Positions 7,411-24,000 of a stretch of DNA of 24,000 nucleotides are shown here, in pieces. This stretch comes from Vulcanimicrobium alpinum (GTDB taxonomy: Bacteria > Vulcanimicrobiota > Vulcanimicrobiia > Vulcanimicrobiales > Vulcanimicrobiaceae): the NCBI RefSeq assembly GCF_027923555.1, contig NZ_AP025523.1:1716484-1740483 (forward strand), given 5' to 3'. The position numbers and the translations under genes were made by a program. The notes below the pieces were generated by a model. It was not told the origin of the DNA. It searched no databases and worked only from the letters and a program-made list of their open reading frames with translations. The first letter of the stretch is position 1; each line of letters opens with the position of its first letter.

Positions 7411-8728
7411 CAGGCCCGTGAAAAAATCGGCGCGTGGTTCGCGAACTGCCCGTTCAGCACGGTTTTCGGGAGGTCGGCGGACCTCTCGAAGCCCGTTGCC
7501 GAGCGGTTCATCTCGAAAACGCCCCCTCGGGTCAGCATCACTTCGCATCATGTCGCGGCCCTCAGATTGCGTATCCTGATCAAGTTGTACGCCGCGGCCG
7601 TCCAGCGCACAATGTCGCCGACCAGATCAAGCCCGCGGAAATGCACCTTGCGCAATCGGCCGATCGTCTTGCCCCACCCGAAGCTCTCCTCGATCAACCT
7701 GCGCCTGCGTTGACTCACCGTGTAGCCCGGATGGCGGATGGTTCGGCGGTCGATCGCGCTGCGGCGACGGGTCGTATTTTGAGCAACGTGCGGCGTCACG
7801 TTGAGCGCTCGCAACGCCTCGACAAAGTCTTTGGTATCGTACGCCTTGTCGGCACCGAGCGTGATTCGGTTGCTTCCGCTGACCCCGCGAATCAATTCCA
7901 GCGCTGCTTCGCGTTCGGCGATCCCGGTCGCGCGAGTGGTCTTCACGCCGACTATCAAGCCGTTGCGATTCTCCATCAGAGCATGTCCGAGATAGCCGAG
8001 AATCGCCGGCGCGCCGCTGCTCTTGCGGTACAACCGCGCGTCCGGATCGGTACTCGAGACGTGCGTCTCGTTGCTGCGCGGCCGGCCACGAAAGTTCACG
8101 CCCTCGTTGCGACCGCCGCTCGAGGTCGGCGGTTCGTCGTCCGACTTGGGCCGAAAGCTCTTGTGGCTGGCCCACGCCTCGATTAGCGTCCCATCGACGG
8201 TGAAATGCTCGTTCGAGAGCAGTTCGTCGGCACGCGCCCGCTCGACCACGGCGGCGAAGAACCGCTCGGAGATTTCGCCATTCAAGAACCGATCGCGGTT
8301 CTTGCTGAACGTCGAGGGGTCCCAGATCTTGTCGTCCATGCTCAAGCCCACGAACCAACGAAAGAGCAAATTGTAACGCAACTGCTCCAGCAGCATCGGC
8401 TCGCTGCGGATCGAGTAGAACATTTGCAACAGCAAGGCTCGCAGCAGCTTCTCCGGCGCGATCGATGGCCGGCCCCGTCGGGAGTAGAGCTTGGAGAACT
8501 CCGGCGAGAGTTCGCGCAGAATTTCGTTGACCATCGCGCGCATCGGGCGCAACGGATGATCGGCGGGCACGGTGTCTTCCGGCTGCAACGTCGTCCAAAC
8601 GGATGCACGCTGCTCATCATGAGTCCGCATCGGCCTCAACCTCACCAAGGTATGAGGAGACTTGCTCTTATAATACGCGAAAAACGCCGTCACGCCAACA
8701 TCAACTCGGCCGATTTTTCATCAGCCTG
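7411..8728 (-). mobile_element. IS5-family insertion sequence (1318 bp) with imperfect terminal inverted repeats
   Basis: The termini are CAGGCCCGTGAAAAAATCGGC (7411-) and, reverse-complemented from 8728, CAGGCTGATGAAAAATCGGCC. It contains a single DDE transposase ORF, is flanked by a CTAG direct repeat, and looks locally lower in GC than its flanks. Confidence 0.85.
7548..8630 (-). CDS. IS5-family DDE transposase (InsH-type N-terminal domain plus DDE_Tnp_1 catalytic domain)
   Basis: RGRPSIAPEKLLRALLLQMFYSIRSEPMLLEQLRYNLLFRWFVGL matches the IS5 transposase N-terminal domain. The catalytic-domain sequences DGTLIEA, GADKAYD and RRRLIEESFGWGK are typical of IS4/IS5-type transposases. I prefer the ATG at 8630 (MRTHDEQ..., GGTGAGG upstream) over the track's GTG at 8693. 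Confidence 0.88.
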   Translation of the reverse strand: MRTHDEQRASVWTTLQPEDTVPADHPLRPMRAMVNEILRELSPEFSKLYSRRGRPSIAPEKLLRALLLQMFYSIRSEPMLLEQLRYNLLFRWFVGLSMDDKIWDPSTFSKNRDRFLNGEISERFFAAVVERARADELLSNEHFTVDGTLIEAWASHKSFRPKSDDEPPTSSGGRNEGVNFRGRPRSNETHVSSTDPDARLYRKSSGAPAILGYLGHALMENRNGLIVGVKTTRATGIAEREAALELIRGVSGSNRITLGADKAYDTKDFVEALRALNVTPHVAQNTTRRRSAIDRRTIRHPGYTVSQRRRRLIEESFGWGKTIGRLRKVHFRGLDLVGDIVRWTAAAYNLIRIRNLRAAT

Positions 8729-9861
8729 CTAGACGGAGCGGTCATTTCGTGCGCGCCGTGGCAGCCGTGCTGCATCGGGTGCGCGCGATCGAGCAGCCAG
8801 AGGTAGACCGCGAGCGCGCCGAACGCCAGGTTGAGCCAGAACGTGTAGTTGAACGCGAACATCGTGAGATCGTGCCGGATGTTCGGATTGGGCTTGGGGA
8901 CGAGATGCAGCGCCGAGAACGCGCCGTCCATCACGATCGCGGAGAACGCCATCGTCGTAAAGAAGATCGCGAAGATGTACAGCGCCATGCGCAGGCCGTA
9001 ATAGCGCCGGTACACGTCGAGCAGCGGGAGCACGATCAGGTCGGCGTAGAGAAATGCGAGCACGCCTCCGAACGAGATCCCGCTCGTCCACAGCACTGCG
9101 GCAAGGGGGACGTTGCCGATCGAGCAGACGAACGAGAGGATCGCGATGACCGGTCCGATGATCGCATTTCCGACGGTCTGCACCGCCGGCGGCGCGCCGT
9201 GCAGAAAGAGCCGCGTCCACGCGCCGTCGGGGACGAACGCCGCCAGCGCGCCGGCGATGAGGAACCCGCCCAGCAGATCCTTCCACAGCATCGAGACGTC
9301 CATGCTGAAGTTCTGCGCGATCGCGATCCGCGTCTCCGGACTGCGCAGCCGCTCCGCAAGCGACGCACCTTCGCCTTCCATCGAACCGTGATCGTGGCCG
9401 GTCGCTTCGTCGACGTGACGGCGCGCCTCGTCGACCAGCGCCTTCGGATAGGTGAGCTTCACCAGCACGGTCATCACGGCGATCAAGATAAGGCCGCCGA
9501 TCCACTCCGCCGCGGTGAACTGCCAGCCCATCAGCAGCCACAGCACGATCCCGAGTTCGATCACCAAGTTCGTCGAGGAGAACAGGAATGCCAGGCTCGG
9601 AACGAGCGCCGCGCCTTTCTTGAAGAGGGTCTTGCTCATCGCGGCGGCCGCATACGAACACGACGAGCTCGCCGCGCCGAACCCCGTCGCGATCGCGATC
9701 TCCCGCACGCCGGCGCGGCCGAGCAGGTTTTGCATCCGCTGCTTCGAGACCAGCGCCTGCACCGCGCCTGAGAACGCAAAGCCCAGGACGAGGCTCCAGC
9801 CGACCTGCCACGCCATTCCGAGCGCCAGCAGCAGCGCTTCGCCCAGCTTCGCGACGAGCAT
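8701..9861 (-). CDS. Polytopic membrane permease of the PF03773 / COG0701 (ArsP/YraQ-like 'predicted permease') type, with His-rich loop and tail; its last 9 codons and stop come from the IS
   Basis: 386 aa with many hydrophobic segments. Paired intramembrane Cys motifs (GAASSSCSYAAAAM and SFVCSIGNVPLAAVLW) are characteristic of this permease family as I recall it. The cytoplasmic loop reads DEATGHDHGSMEGEG and the tail reads HPMQHGCHGAHE. The ATG overlaps the csoR-like stop by 1 nt (TGATG). The 3' end (8701-8728) lies inside the IS5 terminal repeat. Confidence 0.7.
   Translation of the reverse strand: MLVAKLGEALLLALGMAWQVGWSLVLGFAFSGAVQALVSKQRMQNLLGRAGVREIAIATGFGAASSSCSYAAAAMSKTLFKKGAALVPSLAFLFSSTNLVIELGIVLWLLMGWQFTAAEWIGGLILIAVMTVLVKLTYPKALVDEARRHVDEATGHDHGSMEGEGASLAERLRSPETRIAIAQNFSMDVSMLWKDLLGGFLIAGALAAFVPDGAWTRLFLHGAPPAVQTVGNAIIGPVIAILSFVCSIGNVPLAAVLWTSGISFGGVLAFLYADLIVLPLLDVYRRYYGLRMALYIFAIFFTTMAFSAIVMDGAFSALHLVPKPNPNIRHDLTMFAFNYTFWLNLAFGALAVYLWLLDRAHPMQHGCHGAHEMTAPSSRLMKNRPS
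8729..8732. repeat. Target-site duplication CTAG, right copy, of the IS5-family insertion
   Basis: Identical to 7407-7410 and directly abutting the IS terminus at 8728. Confidence 0.75.
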
Positions 9862-10237: not shown

Positions 10238-10871
10238 CTAGCCGAGCTTCCCGGTATAGCCTTCCATGAGGCCCCATGCGGTGTCGCCGAACTCTTTCTT
10301 CCAGCGCGCGTAGTAGTCGGCGAGCTTTGCCTTCATCGCGGCGCGATCGGCGGCGGCGACCTCGTTCACGGTCATCCCTTGGCTCTTGAGCTTCACGACG
10401 AGAGAGTCATTGAGCTTTTGAATGTCGGAGCGCTGACGCTCGGCGACCTTGACGGCGTTACGCGAGACGACGTCTTGCAAGTTCGTCGGGATTGCCTTCC
10501 ACCAGTCGCCGTTGGCGAGCAGCCAGTACCCGCCCCACATGTGGGAGCTCAGGCTGAGGTACTTCTGCACTTCGAAGAAGCGCGCGAACTCGATGTTCGC
10601 GAGCGGGTTTTCCTGACCATCGACGACGTGCGTCTGCAGCGACGTATAGAGCTCGCTGAAGTTCATCGCGACGGGCGCGGCGCCGAGCGACTTGAAGAGG
10701 TCCAGGGCGAAGCGGCTGTTCGGCGTGCGGATCTTCATCCCGGAGAGGTCGGCGAGATTGTGCACGGGTTTCCCGCCGGAGGTGATCTGGCGCATCCCGT
10801 TCTCCCAGATCTTTTCGAATGGGTGGATGTCTTTCTTCGAGATCTCGTCGCGGACGTAGGCGCCCCCCCCG
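10238..10871 (-). pseudogene. dctP: TRAP-transporter solute-binding protein (DctP family), C-terminal fragment, cut off by the IS3-family insertion
   Basis: Translation reads ...GGGAYVRDEISKKDIHPFEKIWENGMRQITSGGKPVHNLADLSGMKIRTPNSRFALDLFKSLGAAPVAMNFSELYTSLQTHVVDGQENPLANI...WGGYWLLAN..., typical of DctP. The reading frame runs straight into the IS terminus at 10872 with no start codon of its own, apart from an internal Met. Confidence 0.8.
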
Positions 10872-11013: not shown

Positions 11014-11433
11014 ATGCAGTCCTCGAACGGAACCGTTTCAACGGAAATCAAGGCAACCAGTTCACCCCAAAAACCTCAGCGACGTCGGTTCTCCGCCGCC
11101 GAGAAGCTGCGCATCGTGCGCGAGGCTGATGCGCGTCCAGCCGGCACGATCGGAGCGTTTCTCCGGCGCGAAGGTATTTACTCATCGCAGCTCTATGCCT
11201 GGCGAAGGCAGCGCGATCAAGGCGACCTCGATCCAGGTGCGGTGCGCCAACGTGCAAAAGCCAAAATGCAAGCCGACGAGGTTGCGCAGCGGCTCAAAGA
11301 ACTCGAGCGGGAAAACCGGAAACTCCGTCGCCAGTTGGCGCGCGCCGAGCTCATAAACGATATCCAAAAAAAATTTGCGGGGCTCCTGGGCGTCGATCTG
11401 GAGAGCCCCGAGACGAACGAGAACGCAGAATGA
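11014..11433 (+). CDS. IS3-family transposase OrfA (HTH DNA-binding plus coiled-coil)
   Basis: RRRFSAAEKLRIVREADARPAGTIGAFLRREGIYSSQLYAWRRQ is a typical IS3 OrfA helix-turn-helix. It is followed by a leucine-zipper-like region, LKELERENRKLRRQLARAEL. Confidence 0.85.
   Translation: MQSSNGTVSTEIKATSSPQKPQRRRFSAAEKLRIVREADARPAGTIGAFLRREGIYSSQLYAWRRQRDQGDLDPGAVRQRAKAKMQADEVAQRLKELERENRKLRRQLARAELINDIQKKFAGLLGVDLESPETNENAE
11367..11373 (+). other. Programmed -1 ribosomal frameshift slippery heptamer A_AAA_AAA for the OrfAB fusion transposase
   Basis: An A8 run lies at 11366-11373. In the orfA frame the codons are caa aaa aaa ttt, so A-AAA-AAA is in X-XXY-YYZ phase. I translated the -1 frame from 11373 (ICGAPGRRSGEPRDERERRMSAAL...) and found no stop before the orfB ATG at 11430. 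Confidence 0.65.
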
Positions 11434-12434
11434 GTGCGGCGCTGGAACTTGCCCACGAGATTCCGCAGCGCGCGTTGTGCACTGCAGCGGGCATCAGCCG
11501 CTCGACGCTGCGGCGCCGCCTAAACGGCACGCCGGAACGACTTCCGTCCGTGATCTCGCGCCGGCGCTCGAGAAGAGCACTGAGCGAACACGAGCAAGCT
11601 GAGGTGCTCGCGGTGCTGCATGGCGAGCGGTTTGCCGATCGCGCGCCGGCGACGATCCACGCGACCTTGCTGGACGAAGGTATCTACCTGTGCTCGGTGA
11701 GCACGATGTACCGCCTGCTGCGAGCAAACGCGGAGGTGCGCGAACGTCGCCGTATTGCACGTCATCCGGAGTACCGTAAGCCCGAACTGGTGGCCACCGG
11801 TCCGCGTCAAGTTTTCTCGTGGGATATCACGAAGCTGCGCGGCCCGCACCCGGGTGAGTGGTTCTCGCTGCTGGTGATGCTCGACATCTTCAGCCGGTTT
11901 GTCGTCGGCTGGATGCTCGTGCATCGGGCCAACGCCGAACTCGCACGGCACTTCATCGCGCAGACGCTGGAACGTGAAGGCATCCAGCCCGGGCACGCGA
12001 TCGTTCACGCCGATCGCGGCGCGGAGATGACGGCGCAACCCGTGTGCGCCCTGATGGACAAGCTCGGCGTCGTACGTTCGCACAGCCGTCCGCACGTTAG
12101 CGACGATAACCCCTTCTCGGAGTCCCAGTTCCGCACGCTGAAGTACCATCCCGAATTCCCCGATCGATTTGGGTCGTTTGAGCACGGGCACGATTTCGTT
12201 GGTGAGTTCATGACCTGGTACAACAACGAGCACCGGCACTCCGGAATCGCGATGCTGACGCCGGCAATGGTGCATCACGGCCAGGCGGACCGCGTGCTCG
12301 CCGCCAGACACGACGTGATGCTCGCGGCTTACCGCGCCAAACCGGAACGATTCATCGGCGGATCGCCAAAGCGGATCGTGTTACCGCCCGCGGTGTGGAT
12401 AAATCCGCCCGCTCACGACGGGGTCGCCGTGTAG
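11430..12434 (+). CDS. IS3-family transposase OrfB (rve integrase-core, DDE)
   Basis: The DDE candidates lie in SWDITKL, VHADRGAEM and SRPHVSDDNPFSESQFRTLKY. The WYNNEHRHSGI motif is typical of IS3 OrfB. The ATG overlaps the orfA stop (ATGA), and the frame is -1 relative to orfA. Confidence 0.9.
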   Translation: MSAALELAHEIPQRALCTAAGISRSTLRRRLNGTPERLPSVISRRRSRRALSEHEQAEVLAVLHGERFADRAPATIHATLLDEGIYLCSVSTMYRLLRANAEVRERRRIARHPEYRKPELVATGPRQVFSWDITKLRGPHPGEWFSLLVMLDIFSRFVVGWMLVHRANAELARHFIAQTLEREGIQPGHAIVHADRGAEMTAQPVCALMDKLGVVRSHSRPHVSDDNPFSESQFRTLKYHPEFPDRFGSFEHGHDFVGEFMTWYNNEHRHSGIAMLTPAMVHHGQADRVLAARHDVMLAAYRAKPERFIGGSPKRIVLPPAVWINPPAHDGVAV

Positions 12435-14146: not shown

Positions 14147-14913
14147 TCCGGCTCGAACGCCGAACCTCGGCCATCGCGTGGGCGATCGTCGACCGACCGC
14201 AGGCGCGCAACGCGATGACGTTCGCGATGTGGGACGAGCTGCACGCGATCGCGCGCAGACTGCGCAACGACCGCGAACTGCGCGTGCTGGTGATCGCGGG
14301 CGCGGGCGGGAAGGCGTTCGTTTCAGGGACCGACATTGCTGGATTTCGCGGTTTCACCGCCGAGGACGGCGTCGCGTACGAAGCGCGGATGGACGCCGTC
14401 ATCGGTGCGGTGGAAGCGCTCGACGTTCCCGTGGTCGCCGCGGTGGCCGGCGCGTGCACGGGCGGCGGGGTCGCGCTCGCGGCGGCCTGCGACGTGCGCA
14501 TCGGCGCGAGCTCCGCGCGCGTCGGCGTCCCGATCGCGCGCACGCTCGGGAACGTGCTTTCGCTGGCCAACATCATGCGCGTCTCGGGCGTCGTCGGCAG
14601 CGACGCGGTGAAGGCGATGCTGGTCACCGCGGAGCTGCTCGATGCGGAGTCGGCGCTGCGGACCGGGTTCTTTCACGAACTCGTCGACGACGCGCAGCTC
14701 GACGCGCGGGCGGCGGAACGCGCCGAGACGATCGCGGCGCTCGCGCCGCTGACGTTGCGGCTGACGAAAGCGGGGATGCGCCGGCTGCGCGCCGCCGTAC
14801 CGATCCCCGACGACGGCGACCTGATCCGCGCCGCCTACGGCAGCGCGGATTTCGCCGAGGGCGTCGACGCCTTCATCGCTAAACGCGCGCCCCGCTGGAC
14901 CGGCTCAGGGTGA
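14143..14913 (+). CDS. Enoyl-CoA hydratase/isomerase (crotonase superfamily)
   Basis: DRPQARNAMTFAMWDELHAIARRL...RVLVIAGAGGKAFVSGTDI...PVVAAVAGACTGGGVALAAACDVRI...DFAEGVDAFIAKRAPRW are crotonase-fold motifs. The GTG start overlaps the CoA-transferase stop (GTGA). Confidence 0.88.
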   Translation: MIRLERRTSAIAWAIVDRPQARNAMTFAMWDELHAIARRLRNDRELRVLVIAGAGGKAFVSGTDIAGFRGFTAEDGVAYEARMDAVIGAVEALDVPVVAAVAGACTGGGVALAAACDVRIGASSARVGVPIARTLGNVLSLANIMRVSGVVGSDAVKAMLVTAELLDAESALRTGFFHELVDDAQLDARAAERAETIAALAPLTLRLTKAGMRRLRAAVPIPDDGDLIRAAYGSADFAEGVDAFIAKRAPRWTGSG

Positions 14914-16260
14914 GAGCGCGGCGAGTCGGGTGCGGGCGTCGTCGGCGTAGGCGGGGTGGAACGACGGGTTCAGCGCGAGCGCGCGCTGGAGTCGTGCGGC
15001 CGCCGTCGCACGGTCGCCGAAGTGCAGGGCGATGATTCCGGCGTGATAGTCGAGCAGCGCGTTCTCCGTCCGCAGACGTAACGCGCGTACGCTGCGCGCG
15101 CGCGCCTCGTCCCATTTGCCGTCCATCGCCGCCGCCCAGGCGAGTGTGTCGTCGGTGAAGATGTCGTCGCGAACGGCAAGGTCGGCGCGTGCGATTCGGT
15201 ATGCGTCGTCTGGGCGCTCGCGATGTTCCGCGTAGTAGATCGCCAGTAGACGGTCGGAGACGTGTTGGGCGTTCCCGATGCGCTCGACGGTACGGATCAG
15301 ATCGTCGGTTCGCTCTGCGGCCGCGGCGTCGCCGAGCGCGCGCTGCGCGTCCACCTCGTACCCTAGCACCTCGGGATACGGCACGACGGCCGCCGAGGCG
15401 TTGGCCGCGTCGAGGCACGCTTGCCAACGGTGCAGCGCACAGGTGACGCGCGCGAGCATCCGGTTGGCTTCGGAGTAGTCCGGAAAGATCGCGAGCGCAC
15501 GCTGTTCGTCCGCGACCGCCGCGTCGTTCTCGCCCGCTTCGAACGCCAGCTCCCCGCCGCGGAACCAGAACCAGGCGCGCTGCTGCGCAGGCTCGTCGTA
15601 GCGCGCGTCGACCGCGGCGGCCGTGCGCGCGAAACGTTCGCGCGCCCGTGCGAGGTGCCCGGTGAGCTCGTCGTAGCGTGCGAACAGCGTATCAAGGGCG
15701 ACGCGGACGTCATCCCCGCCGCGCCTTCCGTCGAGTCGGCGGAGCTGCGCGACGAGGCGCGCAGCATCGTCGTAGCGGCCGAGTTCGAGATCGATCGACG
15801 CCTCGCGGATCGCCATCGCGGGATCGCCGGGCTGCAGCCGCCCCAGGTGTTTGGTCACCGCGAGCGCGTCGCGGAACCGGTGCAGCGCGACGTATGCGGA
15901 CGCGAGCGCAACCTCCGCGTTCACGTTGCCGTAAGGCTGCGCACGCAGCGAACGCTGCGCGGCGTGCACGGCGCGGACGACGTCATCGATGTCTGCGCGC
16001 TCGCGATAGCGCTGCAGGTACTGTCCCGACAACTGCACGGGGCTGAGCATATCGCCCCGCAGGTGCTGGTCGGCAGCGCGCTCCCAGAACGCGATCGTCC
16101 GGTCGCGATCGCGGTAGTCGGCCGTCACCGGTGCGGGTCGCGGAAGCGCAGCGGCGCGCGCCGCGTTTTGGCGTGCATTGATGTACCACGGCCACGCGGC
16201 GACCGCTCCCAGAGCGATCGCCGCGATGGACCACATGAGCGCCGTCGAGTAACGGTTCAT
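14905..16260 (-). CDS. Membrane-anchored tetratricopeptide-repeat (TPR) protein
   Basis: 451 aa. An N-terminal hydrophobic anchor (ALMWSIAAIALGAVAAWPWYI) is followed by repeated ~34-aa helical units rich in A/L/Y/R (e.g. ALASAYVALHRFRDALAVTKHLGRLQPGDP, RALAIFPDYSEANRMLARV, ARLQRALALNPSFHPAY). It is the last gene of the DUF4331-like train. Confidence 0.65.
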   Translation of the reverse strand: MNRYSTALMWSIAAIALGAVAAWPWYINARQNAARAAALPRPAPVTADYRDRDRTIAFWERAADQHLRGDMLSPVQLSGQYLQRYRERADIDDVVRAVHAAQRSLRAQPYGNVNAEVALASAYVALHRFRDALAVTKHLGRLQPGDPAMAIREASIDLELGRYDDAARLVAQLRRLDGRRGGDDVRVALDTLFARYDELTGHLARARERFARTAAAVDARYDEPAQQRAWFWFRGGELAFEAGENDAAVADEQRALAIFPDYSEANRMLARVTCALHRWQACLDAANASAAVVPYPEVLGYEVDAQRALGDAAAAERTDDLIRTVERIGNAQHVSDRLLAIYYAEHRERPDDAYRIARADLAVRDDIFTDDTLAWAAAMDGKWDEARARSVRALRLRTENALLDYHAGIIALHFGDRATAAARLQRALALNPSFHPAYADDARTRLAALSP

Positions 16261-16280: not shown

Positions 16281-16922
16281 TCAGTGCGGCGGGGAGAGGT
16301 ACGGGAAGGACGAGATCTTCGCCTGGCTCGGATTCTGACTAACGTTTTCCGCGCTCAGGCAGTTGTTCTCTTCGCCGTCGTCGGGTACGACCTTCAGCGC
16401 GCTCAGCGTCTTGCCGAACAGCGCGCCCAGCGAGATGTTCACGACGTCGTCGCCGATATCGCGGCCGCCGAACTTGCCGCCGGTCGCGCCGCCGGTCTCA
16501 ACGCCGAGATACGACGCGCTGTCGGTGGACGAGAGGTCGACGGTGTACTCGTTGGGATAGAGAATCGACGCCAGCGTCTTGCCGTAGTCGGTACCGAGTG
16601 CCGCATTCGGGGGACGCACGGTGTCTTCGAACTTGACGATCGCGTTGGGCAGCGGATCGGCCGCCGCGCCGGCGTACGGTTCGACGGCGTTCGTCGTCTT
16701 GTGGTCGACGAAGTTCTCGAAGACCTCTTTGATCGCCGGACGCGCGAGGAGTTCTATCTGCACGTACGACTGGGTCGATACGGTCGGGTTCGACGGGAGC
16801 GGCGACGCGAACGGGTTCGGTCCGGTGTTGAACGGCGGCGGCGTAACCGAACCGCCGTTGCACGCGGCGAGCGCGACGCAGAGGCTGCCCGCAGCGGCGA
16901 GTGTGGCGATGGACTTCTTCAT
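16281..16922 (-). CDS. Lipoprotein resembling the C-terminal half of DUF4331 proteins
   Basis: The lipobox is MKKSIATLAAAGSLCVALAAC|NGG. GGRDIGDDVVNISLGALFG and the C-terminal FPYLSPPH match what I recall as the conserved C-terminal motifs of DUF4331 (GGR-x-x-DDVVD..., FPYL-x-x-P). AGAGG lies 10 nt upstream of the ATG. Confidence 0.55.
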   Translation of the reverse strand: MKKSIATLAAAGSLCVALAACNGGSVTPPPFNTGPNPFASPLPSNPTVSTQSYVQIELLARPAIKEVFENFVDHKTTNAVEPYAGAAADPLPNAIVKFEDTVRPPNAALGTDYGKTLASILYPNEYTVDLSSTDSASYLGVETGGATGGKFGGRDIGDDVVNISLGALFGKTLSALKVVPDDGEENNCLSAENVSQNPSQAKISSFPYLSPPH

Positions 16923-16935
16923 CTGCTGTCGACCT

Positions 16936-17829
16936 CTATGATCCGGTCGACGAGTTCGTCGTCGCCCACACGTGGATGGTGGAACTGGAATATCCCGTCG
17001 TCAGCAGTGAACGCGGCACTTCGACCACGAACGCCAGGACGTTGAAGCCGCCGCCGAGATCCGTCAGCGTGTTCTGCGGTGCGTTCGTGCTGCAGGCGTA
17101 GTTGCCCAGCGCCGAACCGGCGCCCGCGGTCGTCCCCGCTTTGAAGCCGTTGAACGTCGGCTGCGCCGGGTTCGCGGACTTATCGTACGCCGGAGCAAAC
17201 GCGGCCGCGGCGCCGGCGTTGTCGCCGTTGAAAAGCGGTCCGCTCGCCGCCGGACCGGGATCGGTCTGCGAGGAGTGCGTGGCGTAGTTGCGGTCACCGA
17301 GGAACGAGAACAGGGCGAAGAGGTCGAGGTAGAACGGATCGGCGCGCGGACCGGCAAAGACCTTGATGCCGTTCGCGAGTTGCGTCGCCGTGTTGTAGTT
17401 GAACGTGCCGCCCGGGGTAACGAATGTGTTCGCTGTCCCCACTTCATTGGGCTTCGCCGGACCGTACAGCGTCAGCGTCTGCGAGGCGCCGGTCCCGTTC
17501 GCGCCGAACTGGATCACTTGATCTTCCGGCGACGCGCCGGTGCCGTGCGCGATCTTGAACTGCCACATCAGCGTGGGATCGAAGAATTTCGACGTCCCCA
17601 TCCCGGCGGGGATGAGCGGCGAAACGTCCATGACGAACACGACGTTGTTCGCGTTGGTCGGGGATGGAAACACGAAGACGTCGGTGATGTCGGCCGACGT
17701 ATTCGAACGGGTCGCGAGGTTGTAGGTGTCTTGGTGGTCGGAGCTCCGCACCGGGTGCGCGGTGTAGAGCACGGCGGCCGCGGCGACGGCCAGAACCGTC
17801 AACGAACCAAGAATCCGCCGGTTGATCAT
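16936..17829 (-). CDS. Secreted DUF4331-like protein (N-terminal/core half)
   Basis: I trimmed the ORF to the ATG at 17829, which has GAGAGGAA upstream. The signal peptide is MINRRILGSLTVLAVAAAAVLYTAHPVRS. It is followed by SDHQDT...ADITDVFVFPSP...VFAGPRADPFYLDL...GFNVLAFVVEVP. These match the SDH-x-D, D-x-TD-V-Y/F-x-F, AGPRDDPFF and NVLAIVLEVP-type motifs I associate with DUF4331. Confidence 0.6.
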   Translation of the reverse strand: MINRRILGSLTVLAVAAAAVLYTAHPVRSSDHQDTYNLATRSNTSADITDVFVFPSPTNANNVVFVMDVSPLIPAGMGTSKFFDPTLMWQFKIAHGTGASPEDQVIQFGANGTGASQTLTLYGPAKPNEVGTANTFVTPGGTFNYNTATQLANGIKVFAGPRADPFYLDLFALFSFLGDRNYATHSSQTDPGPAASGPLFNGDNAGAAAAFAPAYDKSANPAQPTFNGFKAGTTAGAGSALGNYACSTNAPQNTLTDLGGGFNVLAFVVEVPRSLLTTGYSSSTIHVWATTNSSTGS

Positions 17830-17938: not shown

Positions 17939-18748
17939 TCACACCTTTTCCGCCGCCATCTGCTCGCTCAGCGGCTCCGCGACGCGTCGCGTCCCGACGA
18001 AAACGACGGCAAATACCGCGAGCAAGACCGCCACGAGTACCAGACTTACGACCAGATCGGAAACGGGGGAGCGCCAGCCGAGCTGTTGGGCGAGTTCGTA
18101 GGCGGCGACCGCGATCGCCAGTCCCGTGACCGAACCGATCCAGACGCGCATCACCGCGGGCAAACGGGCCGAACGGTGGGAAACCAAGCGATGGACGAGC
18201 ACGGAGTCGAGCGTGTCGGTGCAGATCATCCCGGCGGAGAACATCGCCCCGACCAGAAGCGCCCCGCCGATACCTGCGGTGCCGAAGACGAGAACGTATG
18301 CGGCGATCTGGCTGGAGGTCTCGAACCCGAACCCGAAAAGGAGTCCGATTGGCAACGCCAGCAACGCGCTCGAGCCCTCGCGCAGCCGCTTCGGCAAGAG
18401 GCGCGTTTTCGCGCCCGCTATGCGTTCGCCGCCGCGCACGAGCGTACGCACGTTCAGCGCGGCAATTGCAAGCAGGACGCCGATCGACACCCAGGTGCCG
18501 ATCGTTTCGATCAACGCTCCATGGGCGGCGAACCGCGCGCCGAGCAAACCGACAAGCACCGAGATCGAGAGGACCATGACGGAGTGTCCGCCCGCGAAGA
18601 GCGTGCCGACGAAGCGGCTTAAAAGCGGCGTCTTCACGTACGCGTTCCGCGTCACGTTGTCGATCGCCGCGATGTGATCGGGATCGGCGCCGTGGCGAAG
18701 CCCGAGCACGAACACCGTGAAAGCGCTGACTCCAAGCGCTCCGATCAT
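17939..18748 (-). CDS. Short (269 aa) HoxN/HupN/NixA-signature (NiCoT-like) nickel/cobalt permease
   Basis: I trimmed the ORF to the ATG at 18748; the upstream part of the track ORF is Arg-rich and overlaps the preceding gene. LRHGADPDHIAAIDNVTR matches the NiCoT TM-II signature H-A-x-D-A-D-H-I-x-A-I-D-N. FAGGHSVMVL matches G-H-S-x-V-V, and FGFGFETSSQIA matches L-G-F-D-T-A-T-E. About seven hydrophobic segments are visible by eye. The ATG overlaps the upstream stop (ATGA). Confidence 0.75.
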   Translation of the reverse strand: MIGALGVSAFTVFVLGLRHGADPDHIAAIDNVTRNAYVKTPLLSRFVGTLFAGGHSVMVLSISVLVGLLGARFAAHGALIETIGTWVSIGVLLAIAALNVRTLVRGGERIAGAKTRLLPKRLREGSSALLALPIGLLFGFGFETSSQIAAYVLVFGTAGIGGALLVGAMFSAGMICTDTLDSVLVHRLVSHRSARLPAVMRVWIGSVTGLAIAVAAYELAQQLGWRSPVSDLVVSLVLVAVLLAVFAVVFVGTRRVAEPLSEQMAAEKV

Positions 18749-20322
18749 GCCGATGCCTGCGCGGCAACCGGATGACGATGCCACGCGAAGCCGTAACCGA
18801 CGGCGGCGGCGAGAACCAATGCCGCGATCGCCGGAACCGGAGCGCCTACTTGCGGTCCGAGTCCCTGACCGATCATGACCGCGCCGACGGCAGCGATCAC
18901 GAACGCCGTCACCAGCGGCGCGAAGCGCGCCACCGCATCGAAGCGCGGACGACTCACGAGCCACGCGGCGCTTCGCACGACCGCGATCCCCAGCACGGTG
19001 AGCACGGCAGCGAGTCCGATGCTGAACGCGACGATCAGCGCGAGACCGTAGGCGACCTGATGCAGTGAAATTGCGGCCAGCAGCACGACCAGCGCTGCCG
19101 GGCACGGTGCGACATTTCCGCTTGCTGCCGCGATCGCTGCACTCCGGAACGTCAGCGGAGCCGTGCCGGGGATCGCGTGCGCGCGCGCGTGCGCGAGTTC
19201 GTCGAGATCCTCGTGACGGTGCGCCGGATCGCCGTGATGGTGGTGATCCGCATCTGGCGCATGCACATGTTCGTGCGCGTGAGGATGCGCGTGCGGGTGC
19301 GCGTGCGGATGTTCGTGAGCAAACGGCAAGCGCCGGCGGATCTCGCGCGCGAGCGCCCGCGCGCCAAGGACGGCGATGAAAACTCCTGAACCCAGTGTGA
19401 TCCACGAGTAGATTTGCTCGGGCACGATCCACTGCGTCGCGAAGAGCACCAGCACACCGAGCGCGAGCACGCCGGCCGTATGCGCGGCGGTGAGCGCCGT
19501 CGCGAGCACGAACGCCTGTCGGGCCGTCGCCCGCGCACCGACGAGGGAGACGGCCAGCAGCGTTTTCCCGTGGCCCGGCTCGAGCGCATGCAGGGCACCC
19601 AAAGCGATCGCCAAGAGCAAGGCGCCCACAACCACGAACGGATCTCCCGCACCCCGTGCGAGGACGTCGGACAGCGCGTTCGAGCGGGCCAGCGGCGCCG
19701 TGGACGTCGGCGTCGCGTCATCCTGACGACCGGAGATCGCGGCGAGCGTTCCGTCGGCGGCCAGGGTCGCGGTCACCGCGATCTCGGCGCGCGGAGAACC
19801 TAAGAGCGCGCTCGGATAGGAACGGAGTTCTCCGGTCGGTTCCTGCGCATCGCCGAGCACGACGTCACGCCATCCCAGCCGCCCTTCTTCCGTCGCGTCG
19901 CGGAACGTCAGCCGATGCGAACCCGCCGCCACCGCACCGTGGTACGACATCGTGGAATACAGCGTCGGCAATCCGCCTGCGCCCGCTCGCTGTTCGACCG
20001 TCACGCGCTCGGGGCGGAGCGCGACGGGGCGTCCGTCGGCTTCAAGCCTGAGGTCCGGGACGATCGCGGCGGCGTGCCGCTCGGCCCACAACTGGAGGGC
20101 CGCGTGTGTGGGCGCCCCGTGCTGATCGAGCAAGCGGTCGAGCGCGAACGTCGGGATCTCGGCTTCGTCGAGGACGTACTTCACGGTGACGGCGCCGGCT
20201 TTCGCCGTGATGCGCGTAAGATGGTTGACGGTGAAATTCCCCAGCGGGTGTGCCGACGCCGCGCCCGCACAAACGAACACGGCAGCGACGGCGATCGCGG
20301 CGACGCGAAGGAAACGACGCAT
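18745..20322 (-). CDS. Fusion of a ~200-aa periplasmic domain to a NicO/RcnA-like nickel/cobalt permease with a histidine-rich cytoplasmic loop
   Basis: I trimmed the ORF to the ATG at 20322, which has GAGGA 5 nt upstream. The signal peptide is MRRFLRVAAIAVAAVFVCAGAASA|HPLGNFTVNH. After the periplasmic domain comes the NicO signature LHALEPGHGKT, then TM segments. The loop (residues 335-382, nt 19177-19320) is HEHPHAHPHAHPHAHEHVHAPDADHHHHGDPAHRHEDLDELAHARAH, with 18 His. Confidence 0.75.
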   Translation of the reverse strand: MRRFLRVAAIAVAAVFVCAGAASAHPLGNFTVNHLTRITAKAGAVTVKYVLDEAEIPTFALDRLLDQHGAPTHAALQLWAERHAAAIVPDLRLEADGRPVALRPERVTVEQRAGAGGLPTLYSTMSYHGAVAAGSHRLTFRDATEEGRLGWRDVVLGDAQEPTGELRSYPSALLGSPRAEIAVTATLAADGTLAAISGRQDDATPTSTAPLARSNALSDVLARGAGDPFVVVGALLLAIALGALHALEPGHGKTLLAVSLVGARATARQAFVLATALTAAHTAGVLALGVLVLFATQWIVPEQIYSWITLGSGVFIAVLGARALAREIRRRLPFAHEHPHAHPHAHPHAHEHVHAPDADHHHHGDPAHRHEDLDELAHARAHAIPGTAPLTFRSAAIAAASGNVAPCPAALVVLLAAISLHQVAYGLALIVAFSIGLAAVLTVLGIAVVRSAAWLVSRPRFDAVARFAPLVTAFVIAAVGAVMIGQGLGPQVGAPVPAIAALVLAAAVGYGFAWHRHPVAAQASA

Positions 20323-20369
20323 GCTGATCCTCACGACGAACTGCGCTCTACCCCTTTCAACGGTCGTTC

Positions 20370-22610
20370 TCACGTGCCGGATTGAGCCGCGTGCGCGAGC
20401 GCGGCCTGGCCCAGCGCGAGGCCGCCGTCGTTCGGCGGCACGTCGCGGTTGAGCCACAGGCGATCGCCGAATGCCTCGACGAGCGCGCTGGTGAGGAGCG
20501 CGTTCTGAAAGACGCCGCCGGATGCCACCACCCGCCGGGCGTCGAGCGCCTCCGCGAGATCGACCACGGCGGCCGCGACCGCGCCGTGAAACGCGCGCGC
20601 GATCGCGCCGGGGTCGCGGCCCGCGAGCCGGTCAGCGACGATCGCGCGCAGGACCGGCTCCCCGTCGAAGGTTCCTCCTCGCAGCGCGAACGCATAGGCG
20701 GGGACGGCCGGGCTGCGGCGCGCGAGGTGCTCCAGCCACATCGCCGCCTGACCTTCGAACGTCTGCTCGCGAGTGAAGCCGCACAGCGCCGCGACCGCGT
20801 CGAACAGCCGTCCGATCGAACTCGTCGAGTACGCGCGCAGGCCGCTTCGCGCGACGGCCCGCGCCTGAGCGAAGCGAGGCGGAAAGGCGAACGGCGCCTG
20901 GTCGAACGCGATGTCGTCTGCGATTCCGGCGAGCGCGCCGGCCGCCGCCTGCACCGGATAACGCGCCGCGGCGTCGCCGCCCGGCAGCGTCATCGCGCGC
21001 AGATGCGTGACGCGGGCGAGCCCGCTGCGCAGTGAGCCCGCGAAGACCTCGCCGCCCCAGATCGTCCCGTCGTCGCCGTAACCGGTGCCGTCAAAGGCGA
21101 AGCCGACGACGTCCTCGTCCCACGCTGCGCGCTCCGCGAGGACGCTGGCGATGTGCGCGCGATGATGCTGAATCGCCACCGCTCTCCCGCCGAGTGCGCG
21201 CGCGTACTCGGCCGCGTAGTACTCGGGATGCAGATCGTGTGCGACCGTCAGCCCGCTCCGTTCGACGCCGTACATCGCGCACAGATCGTCGATCGTCGCG
21301 GCAAATGCGGCGCGGGTCGGCGCGTGGTCGAGATCGCCGATGTGCTGGCTCACGAAGGCTTGTCCGCCGACAATCAGCGCGATCGCGTTCTTGAGATCGC
21401 CGCCGACGGCGAGGATCGGCGTCGCGTCCGGAAACGTCGCCACCGCGCGCGGTGCGTACCCGCGCGCACGGCGCAGGACGACCGGGCCCGCCGCACCGGC
21501 GCGCACGATCGAGTCGTCGATCCGGCGCGCGATCGGCCGCTCGCCGATCAGGAACGCATCGGCGATTCCAGCCAGTGCCGTGCGCGCGTCGGCGTTGCGG
21601 TACGCGATCGGCTCGCTCGAGCGGTTCGCACTCGTCATCACGAGGGCGCGCGGCGCGCCGGCCGCGAAGAGCAGATGGTGCAGCGGCGCGTACGGCAGCA
21701 TCACGCCGAGCTCGTCGTTGTCGGGTGCGACGCCGGCGAGCCGTTCGCGCATCGGCGCCAGCACGATCGGCCGTTCGATCGCGCGCAGCAGCGTTTCGGC
21801 GCTGGCGTCGAGGATCACGAGCTCGCGCGCCGCATCGAGATCGCGCGCCATGATGGCAAACGGCCGCTCCTTGCGGAACTTCCGCTCGCGCAGCGCGCAC
21901 ACCGCTCCCGCGTCGCGCGCGTCGCAGCCCAAGTGATAGCCTCCGATCCCCTTCACGGCGACGATCGCTCCGTCGCGCAACAACGCCGCGGCGGCGTCGA
22001 CCGGATCGTCGGCGGCGACGCGTCCGTCGGCGAGTTCGAGGCGATACCGCGGCCCGCAGGCGGTGCACGCCGTCGGCTGAGCATGGAAGCGGCGGTCGCC
22101 GGGATCGTCGTATTCGCGCCGGCACGCCTCGCACATCGGCCAGCTTCGCATCGTCGTGCGCGGGCGGTCGTACGGCAGCGAGAGCACGATGCTGTAGCGC
22201 GGTCCGCAGTCCGTGCAATTGACGTACGGATACCCGTGGCGGCGGTCGGCGGGATCGGCGAGATCGCGCAGGCACGCTGCGCAGATCGGCAGATCGGGCG
22301 AGACGCGCGCCGTCGGCCGCGCACGCATCGCGCTCGCGCGGATCTCGAACGTCGCCAGCCCTTGCGGCGCCGCGGCACTGCTCGCGAACGAGACGATCCG
22401 CGCTGCCGGCGGCGGCGCCGCCTGCAGCGCAGCCAGAAACGCGTCGAGTAGGTCAGGCGGTCCTTCCGCGCGCAAGCGCACGCCGCCGTCGTCGTTGAGC
22501 ACCCAGCCGGCGATACCGTGCGCCTGCGCGGCGCGAAACACGAACGGCCGGAAACCGACGCCCTGGACGACTCCGGTGATGCACACGTCGACGGCGCTGC
22601 GCGCGGCCAA
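20370..22610 (-). CDS. hypF: [NiFe]-hydrogenase maturation carbamoyltransferase HypF
   Basis: All HypF modules are present. The acylphosphatase domain reads ITGVVQGVGFRPFVFRAA. The two zinc-finger pairs read CAACLRDLADPADRRHGYPYVNCTDCGPRYS and CEACRREYDDPGDRRFHAQPTACTACGPRY. A YrdC-like domain (AVKGIGGYHLGCDA) and a Kae1/peptidase-M22-like C-terminus follow. I trimmed the Arg-rich N-terminal extension to the TTG at 22610, 5 nt after the upstream stop, giving 746 aa. Confidence 0.92.
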   Translation of the reverse strand: MAARSAVDVCITGVVQGVGFRPFVFRAAQAHGIAGWVLNDDGGVRLRAEGPPDLLDAFLAALQAAPPPAARIVSFASSAAAPQGLATFEIRASAMRARPTARVSPDLPICAACLRDLADPADRRHGYPYVNCTDCGPRYSIVLSLPYDRPRTTMRSWPMCEACRREYDDPGDRRFHAQPTACTACGPRYRLELADGRVAADDPVDAAAALLRDGAIVAVKGIGGYHLGCDARDAGAVCALRERKFRKERPFAIMARDLDAARELVILDASAETLLRAIERPIVLAPMRERLAGVAPDNDELGVMLPYAPLHHLLFAAGAPRALVMTSANRSSEPIAYRNADARTALAGIADAFLIGERPIARRIDDSIVRAGAAGPVVLRRARGYAPRAVATFPDATPILAVGGDLKNAIALIVGGQAFVSQHIGDLDHAPTRAAFAATIDDLCAMYGVERSGLTVAHDLHPEYYAAEYARALGGRAVAIQHHRAHIASVLAERAAWDEDVVGFAFDGTGYGDDGTIWGGEVFAGSLRSGLARVTHLRAMTLPGGDAAARYPVQAAAGALAGIADDIAFDQAPFAFPPRFAQARAVARSGLRAYSTSSIGRLFDAVAALCGFTREQTFEGQAAMWLEHLARRSPAVPAYAFALRGGTFDGEPVLRAIVADRLAGRDPGAIARAFHGAVAAAVVDLAEALDARRVVASGGVFQNALLTSALVEAFGDRLWLNRDVPPNDGGLALGQAALAHAAQSGT

Positions 22611-22615
22611 TGCGA

Positions 22616-22849
22616 TTACCCCGGTCCGAGCGCGCAGCCGCGCCCGTGCCGGCCGATCTGCGCGACCTGCCCGTCCTCGACTAGGACCGGCACGAGCGCG
22701 TTGGGTCCGACCAGGGCGTGCAGGCGCGCGCGGGCCTGGGGATCGCGCTCGACGTCGTGCTCGATGACATCGCGGCCGTCGAACGCAAGGTCCTCGCGCA
22801 GATCCGCGCAATGCGGACACCCGCGCATCACGTAGAGTTCAAGCGCCAT
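22616..22849 (-). CDS. Small glutaredoxin/NrdH-like thioredoxin-fold protein (CPHC active site)
   Basis: 77 aa: MALELYVMRGCPHCADLREDL...ALVPVLVEDGQVAQIG. This shows a beta1 strand, CPxC, and the cis-Pro (VPV) region of the Grx fold. An extra Cys sits near the C-terminus (GRGCALGPG). The start overlaps the SIS gene end by 11 nt, and the stop is 5 nt before hypF. Confidence 0.7.
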   Translation of the reverse strand: MALELYVMRGCPHCADLREDLAFDGRDVIEHDVERDPQARARLHALVGPNALVPVLVEDGQVAQIGRHGRGCALGPG

Positions 22850-24000
22850 CGGCTTGCGCGAGCACGCGGCGGATCTCGTGGACGATCGCTGCCTGCGCTT
22901 CCTGGATCCGCGGGATGTCGTCGCACCGCACCACGATCGTGTGATCCGCGAGGCCGCGGCGAACGATCTCGCCGCCGTCGTATCCGAGGAGCGCGACGGT
23001 CAGCATCCCGCGCCGCCGCGCCTCGATCAACGCCGCGACGACGTTCTTCGACCCGCCGCTCGTCGAGAGCGCGAACGCGATGTCGCCGGCGCGGGCCTGC
23101 GCGATGATCTGCCGCAGAAAGATCGTCTCCATCCCGACGTCGTTGCCGATCGCCGTGACGATCGCCGGCTCGTTCGCGAGCGAGAACGCGCGCACCGGGC
23201 GCCAGCCGTGCGGCGGCTCGACGCAGTCGATCGCGAAATCGTCGGCGTCAGTCGCCGACCCGCCGTTGCCCAAGCTCAGGATCGTTGCGCCCGCGGCGAT
23301 CCGCTCGGCGATCGCGTCCGCCGCGGCGACGATCGCGGCGGCGTTCGCAGCAAGCTGCTCGCGCAAGCGCTCGGCGTCGCGCGACTTGGCGTGGATCGAC
23401 GCCGCCACGTCGCTCAGCAGCGCGGCGTCATCGTCGACCATCGCAACTCCCAGGTACGGATAGAGGAACGCGGAGGCACCGACGTCGTGACCGAGCGTGC
23501 GGCGTTCGAGGAACACGTGCACGCTTTCGTACAGCGTGTGGCCGAGCAGTTCGTTGAGCTCCTGATGGACGTGCGGATCGGCGCTCGGCGAGGCGAAGGC
23601 GAAGTCCGCATCATCGCGTTCGCCGGAGAGCGCAAGCGTGAGCGCGCCGGCATCCCGGGCCCGGCGCAGCGCGCGTCGAACCGCCGGATCGCCTTCAGGC
23701 GGCCCGAAGCCGATCGCGATGTCGCCGGACCGGATGCGTGCGCTGATCCCGCTCTCCGAACTTCCGCTCAGATCCGCGGCCGGCAACGCGCGCTTTCCGA
23801 CGATGACGGGATGAACGAACTCGACCGAGACGTGAGCCGCGTCGGTCGCGTACGCTTCGCGGCCGAACGTGCACAGCCGTCCGCCGGAGGTGAAACGCTC
23901 CGCGAGCGCTCGCGCGGCGAGCGCGATGCGCGCTCCCTCGCGGGCGAAGTACGAGCGCGCGAGCGGGCTGCGCGCGCGCAGACGTGCGGCGCACGCCGCG
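22839..24000 (-). CDS. Tandem SIS-domain protein (GmhA/DiaA-like fold), 5' end outside the window
   Basis: The track starts this ORF at 23786 (TTG). My translation shows the same frame stays open to position 24000 (...ARALAERFTSGGRLCTFGREAYATDAAHVSVEFVHPVIVGKRALPAADLSG...). The second SIS domain is canonical (ATILSLGNGGSATDADDFAIDC; DIAFALSTSGGSKNVVAALIEARRRGMLTVALLGYDGG; DIPRIQEAQAAIVHE). The first has a degenerate nucleotide/sugar-phosphate loop (FGREAYATDAAH instead of GNGGSxxDAxH). Confidence 0.75.
   Translation of the reverse strand, partial: AACAARLRARSPLARSYFAREGARIALAARALAERFTSGGRLCTFGREAYATDAAHVSVEFVHPVIVGKRALPAADLSGSSESGISARIRSGDIAIGFGPPEGDPAVRRALRRARDAGALTLALSGERDDADFAFASPSADPHVHQELNELLGHTLYESVHVFLERRTLGHDVGASAFLYPYLGVAMVDDDAALLSDVAASIHAKSRDAERLREQLAANAAAIVAAADAIAERIAAGATILSLGNGGSATDADDFAIDCVEPPHGWRPVRAFSLANEPAIVTAIGNDVGMETIFLRQIIAQARAGDIAFALSTSGGSKNVVAALIEARRRGMLTVALLGYDGGEIVRRGLADHTIVVRCDDIPRIQEAQAAIVHEIRRVLAQADGA

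Follow-up and report, generated by a model that had tools for sequence, protein, structure and literature searches.

We analyzed a stretch of 24,000 nucleotides (nt) of the genome of Vulcanimicrobium alpinum, a member of the Eremiobacterota (contig NZ_AP025523.1, positions 1,716,484 to 1,740,483; the whole stretch is called the window, and all coordinates below refer to it), in which two overlapping genes for permeases of the nickel/cobalt type, here called A and B, occupy positions 17939 to 20322 of the minus strand. The two genes open a conserved five-gene cluster, predicted from its sequences to handle metal, that continues with two DUF4331 genes and a gene for a tetratricopeptide repeat (TPR) protein. 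The cluster is best described as a variant of a recently described principle, in which a tethered histidine captures metal for the permease that carries it, and it belongs to a widespread uncharacterized family. The function that we favor, with a probability of about 45%, is capture of Ni(II) or Co(II), or possibly of Cu, outside the cytoplasm and its import by a five-gene envelope operon. A preliminary description of this DNA had treated the A-B pair as the unit, overlooking the conserved DUF4331 and TPR genes immediately downstream, and had proposed that the pair is a coupled nickel uptake device feeding hydrogenase maturation. The coupling of A and B is favored by the gene overlap and the natural fusions reported below, whereas the link to hydrogenase is not conserved.

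All five genes of the cluster lie on the minus strand. After B comes a gene for a secreted protein of 297 amino acids (aa) with the N-terminal half of DUF4331 (16936..17829), followed by a gene for the C-terminal half, a predicted lipoprotein with the lipobox LAAC (16281..16922). Both halves exceed the PF14224 threshold of 27 bits (N-half, 82.7 bits, E 4e-23; C-half, 42.2 bits, E 8.5e-11), and they jointly cover PF14224 positions 122-237 and 250-421, the second of these stretches falling to the C-half. The fifth gene (14905..16260) encodes a membrane-anchored TPR protein of 451 aa with TPR_19 and TPR_2 matches. Eight gene-called relatives share with the window the arrangement A, B, DUF4331, DUF4331, TPR and then ECH and CoA-transferase genes. 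For neighbor counts, we clustered the open reading frames (ORFs) of 82 loci bearing A, drawn from about nine phyla. A TPR homolog is found on the same strand in 67 of the 82 loci, and its usual place outside the Eremiobacterota is immediately upstream of A; DUF4331 occurs in 64 loci. DUF4331, TPR and A are thus the conserved core.

The DUF4331 protein is usually a single protein of about 440 aa, and it is encoded by two adjacent genes in the Eremiobacterota. The N-terminal half encoded in the window has a signal peptide that leads into the sequence VRS/SDH (a slash marks the predicted cleavage site), which yields a predicted mature N-terminus S-D-H (17734..17742) of the X-X-His type, the amino-terminal Cu and Ni binding (ATCUN) type. 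The pattern [SA][SD]H follows a site that complies with the -1/-3 rule, and is therefore predicted to be cleaved, in 61 of 62 DUF4331 N-termini; the triplets are SSH (32), SDH (18), ADH (9) and ASH (3). A scan of one genome per species found an A-like protein in at least 537 species, and the groups that carry it include Eremiobacterota, Acidobacteriota, Actinomycetota, Chloroflexota, Cyanobacteria, Planctomycetota, Ignavibacteria, Firmicutes and Binatia. A literature search for DUF4331 (PF14224) and for the motifs SSHREAP and HPLGNF returned nothing relevant.

Gene A (18745..20322) encodes 525 aa, comprising a signal peptide, a periplasmic domain that begins with a histidine and a NicO permease domain resembling RcnA. 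The signal peptide (MRRFLRVAAIAVAAVFVCAGAASA, residues 1-24, 20251..20322) ends in A-S-A and is followed by HPLGNF as the predicted mature start, with the cleavage site inferred from the -1/-3 rule alone. Cleavage at this site would leave His25 (codon 20248..20250) as mature residue 1, or His1. This histidine is invariant in three alignments; mature residues H1, P2, L3, G4, N5, F6, N9 and H10 are invariant in 36 Eremiobacterota sequences, and AxA/HP[LM]GNF is found in 135 of 137 cluster representatives of the A family, a degree of conservation that speaks against chance. The soluble region spans residues 25-200 (about 175-200 aa), with the periplasmic domain proper at 19723..20250, and is joined to the first transmembrane helix (TM1) of the membrane domain by a 25-residue linker (DDATPTSTAPLARSNALSDVLARGA, 19648..19722) that appears flexible, with a low predicted local distance difference test score (pLDDT) of 38-58 in the model. 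TM1 of the NicO domain contains HALEPGHGKT (residues 245-254, 19561..19590), in which P249, G250, H251, G252 and K253 are invariant across phyla in our alignment. The loop between TM3 and TM4 has 18 histidines in 55 residues (331-385, 19168..19332), and a seventh hydrophobic segment extends the six-helix core. More than 120 full-length homologs of A share 57-79% identity with it, and the homologs of A and B from named sources are mostly labeled Eremiobacterota (WPS-2).

Gene B (17939..18748) encodes 269 aa and is 100% identical to V. alpinum WPS_17800. Its start overlaps the stop of A in the sequence ATGA (18745..18748; junction sequence GCATCGGCATGATCGG). The B protein has the N-terminus MIGALGVSAFTVFVLGLRHGADPDH and opens directly in the signature helix LGLRHGADPDH, so that the HX4DH signature of NiCoT proteins, RHGADPDH (18674..18697), lies in its first helix, aligned to RHAVDADH of a canonical NiCoT. 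All four NiCoT motifs, HX4DH, GHS, (F/L)G(F)(D/E)T and GMxxxDTxD, occur in this order, as RHGADPDH at residues 18-25, GGHS at 53-56, FGFETSSQ at 140-147 and GMICTDTLD at 173-181. Hydropathy gives about seven segments for B, one short of the eight TM helices of canonical NiCoT proteins, which have the signature in TM2. Because the alignment of B with a canonical eight-TM NiCoT (33% identity) begins at residue 36 of the latter, TM1 is absent from B. The features of the pair on which the preliminary description was built are therefore sound: the ASA/HP signal peptide that is predicted to leave a histidine first, the soluble domain, the NicO/RcnA-type domain with HALEPGHGKT and the 18-His loop are all found on the minus strand, as are the ATGA overlap and a 269-aa B protein with the NiCoT signature motifs and without the first TM. 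The high G+C content of the DNA produces long spurious ORFs in the window, and ORF length alone is therefore misleading; a 497-aa ORF for B with a GTG start (17939-19432, minus strand) is a spurious extension into the A coding region, and long antisense ORFs over A, TPR and hypF are likewise spurious.

Profile searches place both proteins in the Pfam family NicO (PF03824, gathering threshold 27.7 bits), A with 40.7 bits over residues 233-485 and B with 68.9 bits. At the subfamily level, A matches the RcnA-like nickel/cobalt efflux model NF007454 best (E 1.6e-35), its residues 238-487 covering positions 20-277 of the 283 in the model, with a score below the cut-off (122.7 bits versus 195). B matches the HoxN/NixA model TIGR00802 (E 3e-20, 72.8 bits, far below the cut-off of 333), with residues 10-190 covering positions 2-209 of 281, and the NicT model NF052500 (71.8 bits, cut-off 450). 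A BLASTP comparison of A with B found no similarity between the two proteins. With each protein matching a subfamily model of its own over most of that model and showing no BLASTP similarity to the other, A and B are not the halves of a simple split gene, an explanation that the preliminary description had set out for profile searches to decide and that can be ruled out. That description had also spoken of two different permease architectures; the distinction between an RcnA-like and a HoxN/NixA-like protein stands by NCBIfam, but since both belong to Pfam NicO, "two different families" overstates the difference. The HupE_UreJ_2 profile (PF13795) has no match in A, whose permease domain is PF03824 NicO. 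Searches of PDB sequences with the A membrane domain, with B and with the N-terminal half of DUF4331 gave nothing relevant.

The periplasmic domain of A belongs to no Pfam family at E<=0.01 or even at E<=10. This includes DUF1007 (COG3683), which had been suggested as a type of periplasmic partner, and neither a sequence nor a profile search found a PDB sequence that matches the domain. Searched alone, it has 2,437 cluster representatives at E<=1e-3 (clusters at 50% identity), nearly all of which begin AxA/HP(L/M)GNF, and 57 of the 72 long representatives carry NicO. Its AlphaFold2 (AF2) model is a beta-sandwich (pLDDT 77.8, predicted template modeling score (pTM) 0.73). The top Foldseek match of this model is 9GCE (E 1.8e-5, probability 1.0), a structure of the Cu-bound Ang-1 domain (RbAng-1a) from a HupE/UreJ-2 protein, and no other match has an E value under 1e-3; 9GCE is again the top match for the model of an acidobacterial homolog. 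Judged from these models, the periplasmic domain of A appears to be an anglerase analogue at the level of fold and architecture, mounted on a different permease family.

The anglerases Ang-1 and Ang-2, described in 2025 from Pseudomonadota and Actinomycetota, are domains that start with His1 and that a flexible linker connects to HupE/UreJ-2 permeases; Cu and Ni are bound via a mono-histidine brace, and a role in catching metal for uptake was proposed (Franco Cairo et al., Nat Commun, PMC12537917). Capture of metal by the N-terminal histidine of A, as envisaged in the preliminary description, thereby gains a structural precedent by analogy. A resembles the anglerases in its signal peptide, which is also predicted to leave His as mature residue 1, conserved in the family, and in the succession of an extracytoplasmic domain of about 170 aa, modeled as a beta-sandwich in A, a flexible linker and a multi-helix permease from the world of Ni transport. 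It differs in the permease, which is NicO/RcnA-type (PF03824) in A and HupE/UreJ-2 (PF13795) in anglerases, in a second conserved histidine (H10) and the D/E of YVxDxAEIP that are specific to the A family, in its occurrence in Eremiobacterota, Acidobacteriota, Chloroflexota and others, and in its neighbors, which are DUF4331, TPR and a second NicO module. NicO, RcnA, DUF4331 and TPR partners are not mentioned in the anglerase paper (PMC12537917).

A shares with RcnA the six-helix core, the xPGHxKT helix, the cytoplasmic His-rich loop and the PCPxA helix, and differs from it in the added periplasmic His1 domain, in the seventh hydrophobic segment and in being coupled to a NiCoT-like gene inside a DUF4331/TPR cluster. 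B differs from HoxN, NixA and NicT in having seven helices instead of eight, with the N-terminus predicted outside, and in a shorter central loop, and in the loci examined it always follows gene A. In copper uptake by CopC-CopD, and by YcnJ with YcnI, an N-terminal histidine-brace domain is fused or coupled to a permease, with an extra accessory protein that begins at His1. The likeness of these systems to A is an analogy only: they are copper-specific, and the folds and permease families are unrelated. ZrgA/PA4063 (PDB 8EZW) is a free, zinc-specific periplasmic protein that serves an ABC transporter (PMC9820375); its mature protein starts at Asp22 rather than at a histidine, and with a weak fold match it was rejected as a close relative of the A domain.

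The pairing of A with a second permease module was followed across the 82 loci. The 4-nt overlap of A and B is identical in all eight gene-called Eremiobacterota relatives. B-type proteins, with seven helices and the NiCoT motifs and encoded directly after A, were found in Eremiobacterota only, and never without A in the loci examined. In about half of the loci A has a companion, a second module of the NicO superfamily that takes one of three forms. Besides B, these are a canonical eight-helix NiCoT (PF03824, E 1.6e-100), present in the cluster at eight loci (in seven of them it follows the TPR gene, and in the eighth it lies 0.7 kb downstream of A), and a module of six helices marked by KHAxEADH, GHT, a His loop and GLAGSAA, whose NicO and DsbD_2 matches are sub-threshold. 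Five loci encode this six-helix HX4DH module as a separate gene directly after A, and 19 have it as a C-terminal fusion to A (L020, L022, L025, L027, L031-L033, L036, L040, L049, L052-L054, L063, L071, L073, L076, L077 and L080).

The fused proteins, of 720-855 aa, are spread over several phyla and are numerous in Acidobacteriota. The best 120 matches listed for a 780-aa fusion query are 55-100% identical to it, and all but four align over >=92% of its length. The sources annotate the fused proteins as PF03824+PF13386 or as "sulfite exporter TauE/SafE". The helices in the AF2 model of one natural fusion (P0174), together with the hydropathy of A and B, place both modules in the same orientation, with the N-terminus outside and the His loops in the cytoplasm, which matches the loss of TM1 from B. 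The fusion of A to an HX4DH module, or its direct succession by one, argues for a two-module permease, and the natural fusions and the conserved overlap suggest that the coupling of A with this module is functional and probably physical. The A-B pair is thus real and conserved, and its members probably cooperate.

From these features we infer the following sequence of events. The operon of A, B, the two DUF4331 genes and TPR would be transcribed from its own promoter, with A and B as the permease part. The secreted or lipid-anchored DUF4331 protein would bind a divalent metal outside the cytoplasm through its predicted X-X-His N-terminus, and so would the tethered beta-sandwich of A, through His1. 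Ni(II) or Co(II) is the most likely metal, with Cu(II) as a possibility. The tethered domain would hand it to the RcnA-like NicO domain of A, with six or seven helices including the HALEPGHGK helix, which would act beside B as a NiCoT-like module without TM1 that contributes the HX4DH site, and the cytoplasmic 18-His loop of A would receive the ion. The net function would be metal acquisition, with B as an accessory second module. The choice of Ni/Co is suggested by the NicO/NiCoT assignment, the HX4DH signature, the hypF gene adjacent in one species and an NikMN-Q-O importer encoded directly beside A, on the opposite strand, in five loci (L028, L035, L051, L075 and L079). Uptake is suggested by the capture-type N-terminal motifs on two extracytoplasmic proteins and by the importer-type partner modules. 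The NikMN-Q-O importer is of the energy-coupling factor type; its genes at the five loci encode a CbiM-PDGLE protein (NikMN), the Q component and an ATPase whose tail is rich in histidine, and A at these loci has no second NicO module.

Several observations weigh against this reading. The fold match of the A domain to 9GCE is modest (TM-score 0.41-0.50, root mean square deviation 8 A), and no sequence similarity to Ang-1 was detected, 9GCE being missed by phmmer and by a profile search of PDB sequences. The AF2 model of fusion P0174 has a pLDDT of 71.7 but a pTM of 0.37, and so gives no support for how the modules pack. Co-occurrence of the pair, which the preliminary description had made a test of its proposal, is borne out by the overlap in the Eremiobacterota relatives; a second module of any kind is missing from about half of the loci that bear A, which makes B accessory rather than obligatory. 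The membrane domain of A is closest to the RcnA efflux subfamily; genes for extracytoplasmic function (ECF) sigma factors flank the cluster in 20 loci and anti-sigma genes in seven, as in metal-resistance determinants. Finally, the Cu preference of Ang-1 and a Met-rich ORF found in relatives point to copper.

The last of these points underlies the alternative that survives best, in which the same architecture serves the acquisition or handling of copper. In its favor, X-X-His is a binding motif for Cu(II) and for Ni(II) alike, and Ang-1, the closest structural relative of the A domain, binds Cu more tightly than Ni (dissociation constants of 74 nM and 220 nM, respectively; PMC12537917). Relatives, among them four of five long-contig ones, encode a small Met-rich secreted protein just before A. 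It has 108-127 aa, two conserved Cys and no Pfam match (L001 7532-7879, L002 7504-7851, L083 6553-6879, L084 6445-6828 and L087 2978-3325). This ORF is absent from the window, where hypF occupies its place, and both permease modules belong to the Ni/Co NicO/NiCoT family and carry the HX4DH signature; these points, like the NikMN-Q-O genes beside A in five loci, count against copper. Copper as the substrate is a real but lesser possibility.

Efflux or homeostasis would reverse the direction of transport: A would be an RcnA-type Ni/Co exporter, its periplasmic domain, DUF4331 and TPR would accept or buffer the metal, and B would be a separate importer that balances the flux. In E. coli, RcnB accepts or buffers exported metal for RcnA. 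The subfamily match of A to NF007454, the resemblance of its cytoplasmic His-rich loop to that of RcnA and the adjoining genes for ECF sigma and RskA-type anti-sigma factors agree with such a role, and the sources call A-family proteins "nickel/cobalt exporter", names that are automatic. The ECF sigma genes lie about 0.1-6 kb from A (for example in L026, L030, L044, L048, L070 and L071). We consider efflux unlikely, because A scores under the NF007454 cut-off, the extracytoplasmic His1 and X-X-His are motifs of high-affinity capture whose closest precedent was proposed for uptake, and the modules that partner A have the HX4DH of importers and share its orientation in the fusions.

It is about equally improbable that A and B are independent transporters that are merely co-transcribed and form no complex. 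Such independence would suit the many A loci without a second module, the seven Eremiobacterota loci in which the canonical NiCoT is not adjacent to A and the fusion model without confident packing between domains. It would leave unexplained the 4-nt overlap kept in eight of eight relatives, the recurrence of fusions between A and the HX4DH module in several phyla and the finding that B-type proteins do not occur without A in the loci examined.

The gene upstream of A, hypF (20370..22610, minus strand; five HypF Pfam domains, 746-aa gene call), is a neighbor outside the conserved module. From its stop codon (20370-20372) to the start of A there are 47 nt, in which no terminator-like site occurs. 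A promoter-like element, AATCCG-N16-CGTT (20359..20383, minus strand), overlaps the stop codon of hypF at a distance of 61 nt from the A start. In at least ten loci of Eremiobacterota, AATCCG-N15/16-CGTT recurs at -61 to -73 relative to this start amid variable sequence, and this conservation suggests a promoter function. Since the element is kept within the 3' end of hypF, A appears to retain its own promoter, and the adjacency of hypF to be incidental. The spacing of the element resembles that of an ECF-sigma-type promoter. A scan for sigma-70 promoters and terminators found nothing above expectation, and an Rfam search for NiCo and cobalamin riboswitches in the window and eight loci returned rRNA matches only.

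Other genes stand before A in the relatives. A tblastn search of the 82 loci with HypF and SIS placed HypF close to A in just two, the window and L029. Five long-contig relatives have an iron-containing alcohol dehydrogenase gene (Fe-ADH) upstream of A, four of them with a D-Tyr deacylase gene as well, and none has hypF there; the succession of SIS, glutaredoxin and HypF before A is confined to V. alpinum contigs. In the window, a glutaredoxin-like gene (77 aa in the L088 gene call) and an SIS-domain gene precede hypF (20370-23786 for the three, minus strand), and the hyp region appears to run past the window edge. Two insertion sequence (IS) transposase genes, of the DDE_Tnp_1 type (7548-8693, minus strand) and the rve integrase type (11430-12434, plus strand), and a DctP solute-binding gene truncated to profile positions 118-285 (10238-10795, minus strand) are consistent with recent local rearrangement. 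A TonB-dependent receptor gene (5227-7410, plus strand) and an ArsP-type permease gene (8701-9861, minus strand) lie a few kb off, beyond the IS elements. The position of hypF in V. alpinum appears to be a local rearrangement, compatible with the supply of Ni to hydrogenase and not evidence for it; the expectation that the pair tracks hyp genes was not borne out in the 82 loci, and hydrogenase linkage as a conserved feature is rejected. Dedicated nickel uptake for [NiFe]-hydrogenase maturation, which the Ni/Co chemistry of the family and the position of A behind SIS, glutaredoxin and hypF had suggested, is therefore very unlikely as the function of the cluster.

These results bear on how NicO-family proteins are read from genomes. 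Automatic annotation labels them "nickel/cobalt exporter", "RcnA" and in some cases "sulfite exporter TauE/SafE", no member bearing such a periplasmic domain is known to have been studied, and, as this case shows, an RcnA-like sequence is an unsafe predictor of efflux. A wider proposal, which we regard as speculative and rather doubtful, is that DUF4331, by its ATCUN-type N-terminus, passes metal to the His1 domain on a NicO permease of two modules, RcnA-like and HX4DH-type, made from overlapping genes or as a single fused polypeptide, with TPR as organizer, in an undescribed broad pathway of Ni(II)/Cu(II) acquisition; this pathway could possibly be the main Ni route to high-affinity [NiFe]-hydrogenases in trace-gas-oxidizing soil phyla. 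If capture and import by the five-gene operon is the correct reading, tethered capture by an N-terminal histidine, in 2025 a feature of HupE/UreJ-2 only, would reach a second permease family, and DUF4331 and the TPR partner would gain their first functional context. The cluster would then be a testable candidate for the acquisition of scarce Ni, Co or Cu, for example for [NiFe]-hydrogenases, in the soil phyla Eremiobacterota, Acidobacteriota, Chloroflexota and Actinomycetota.

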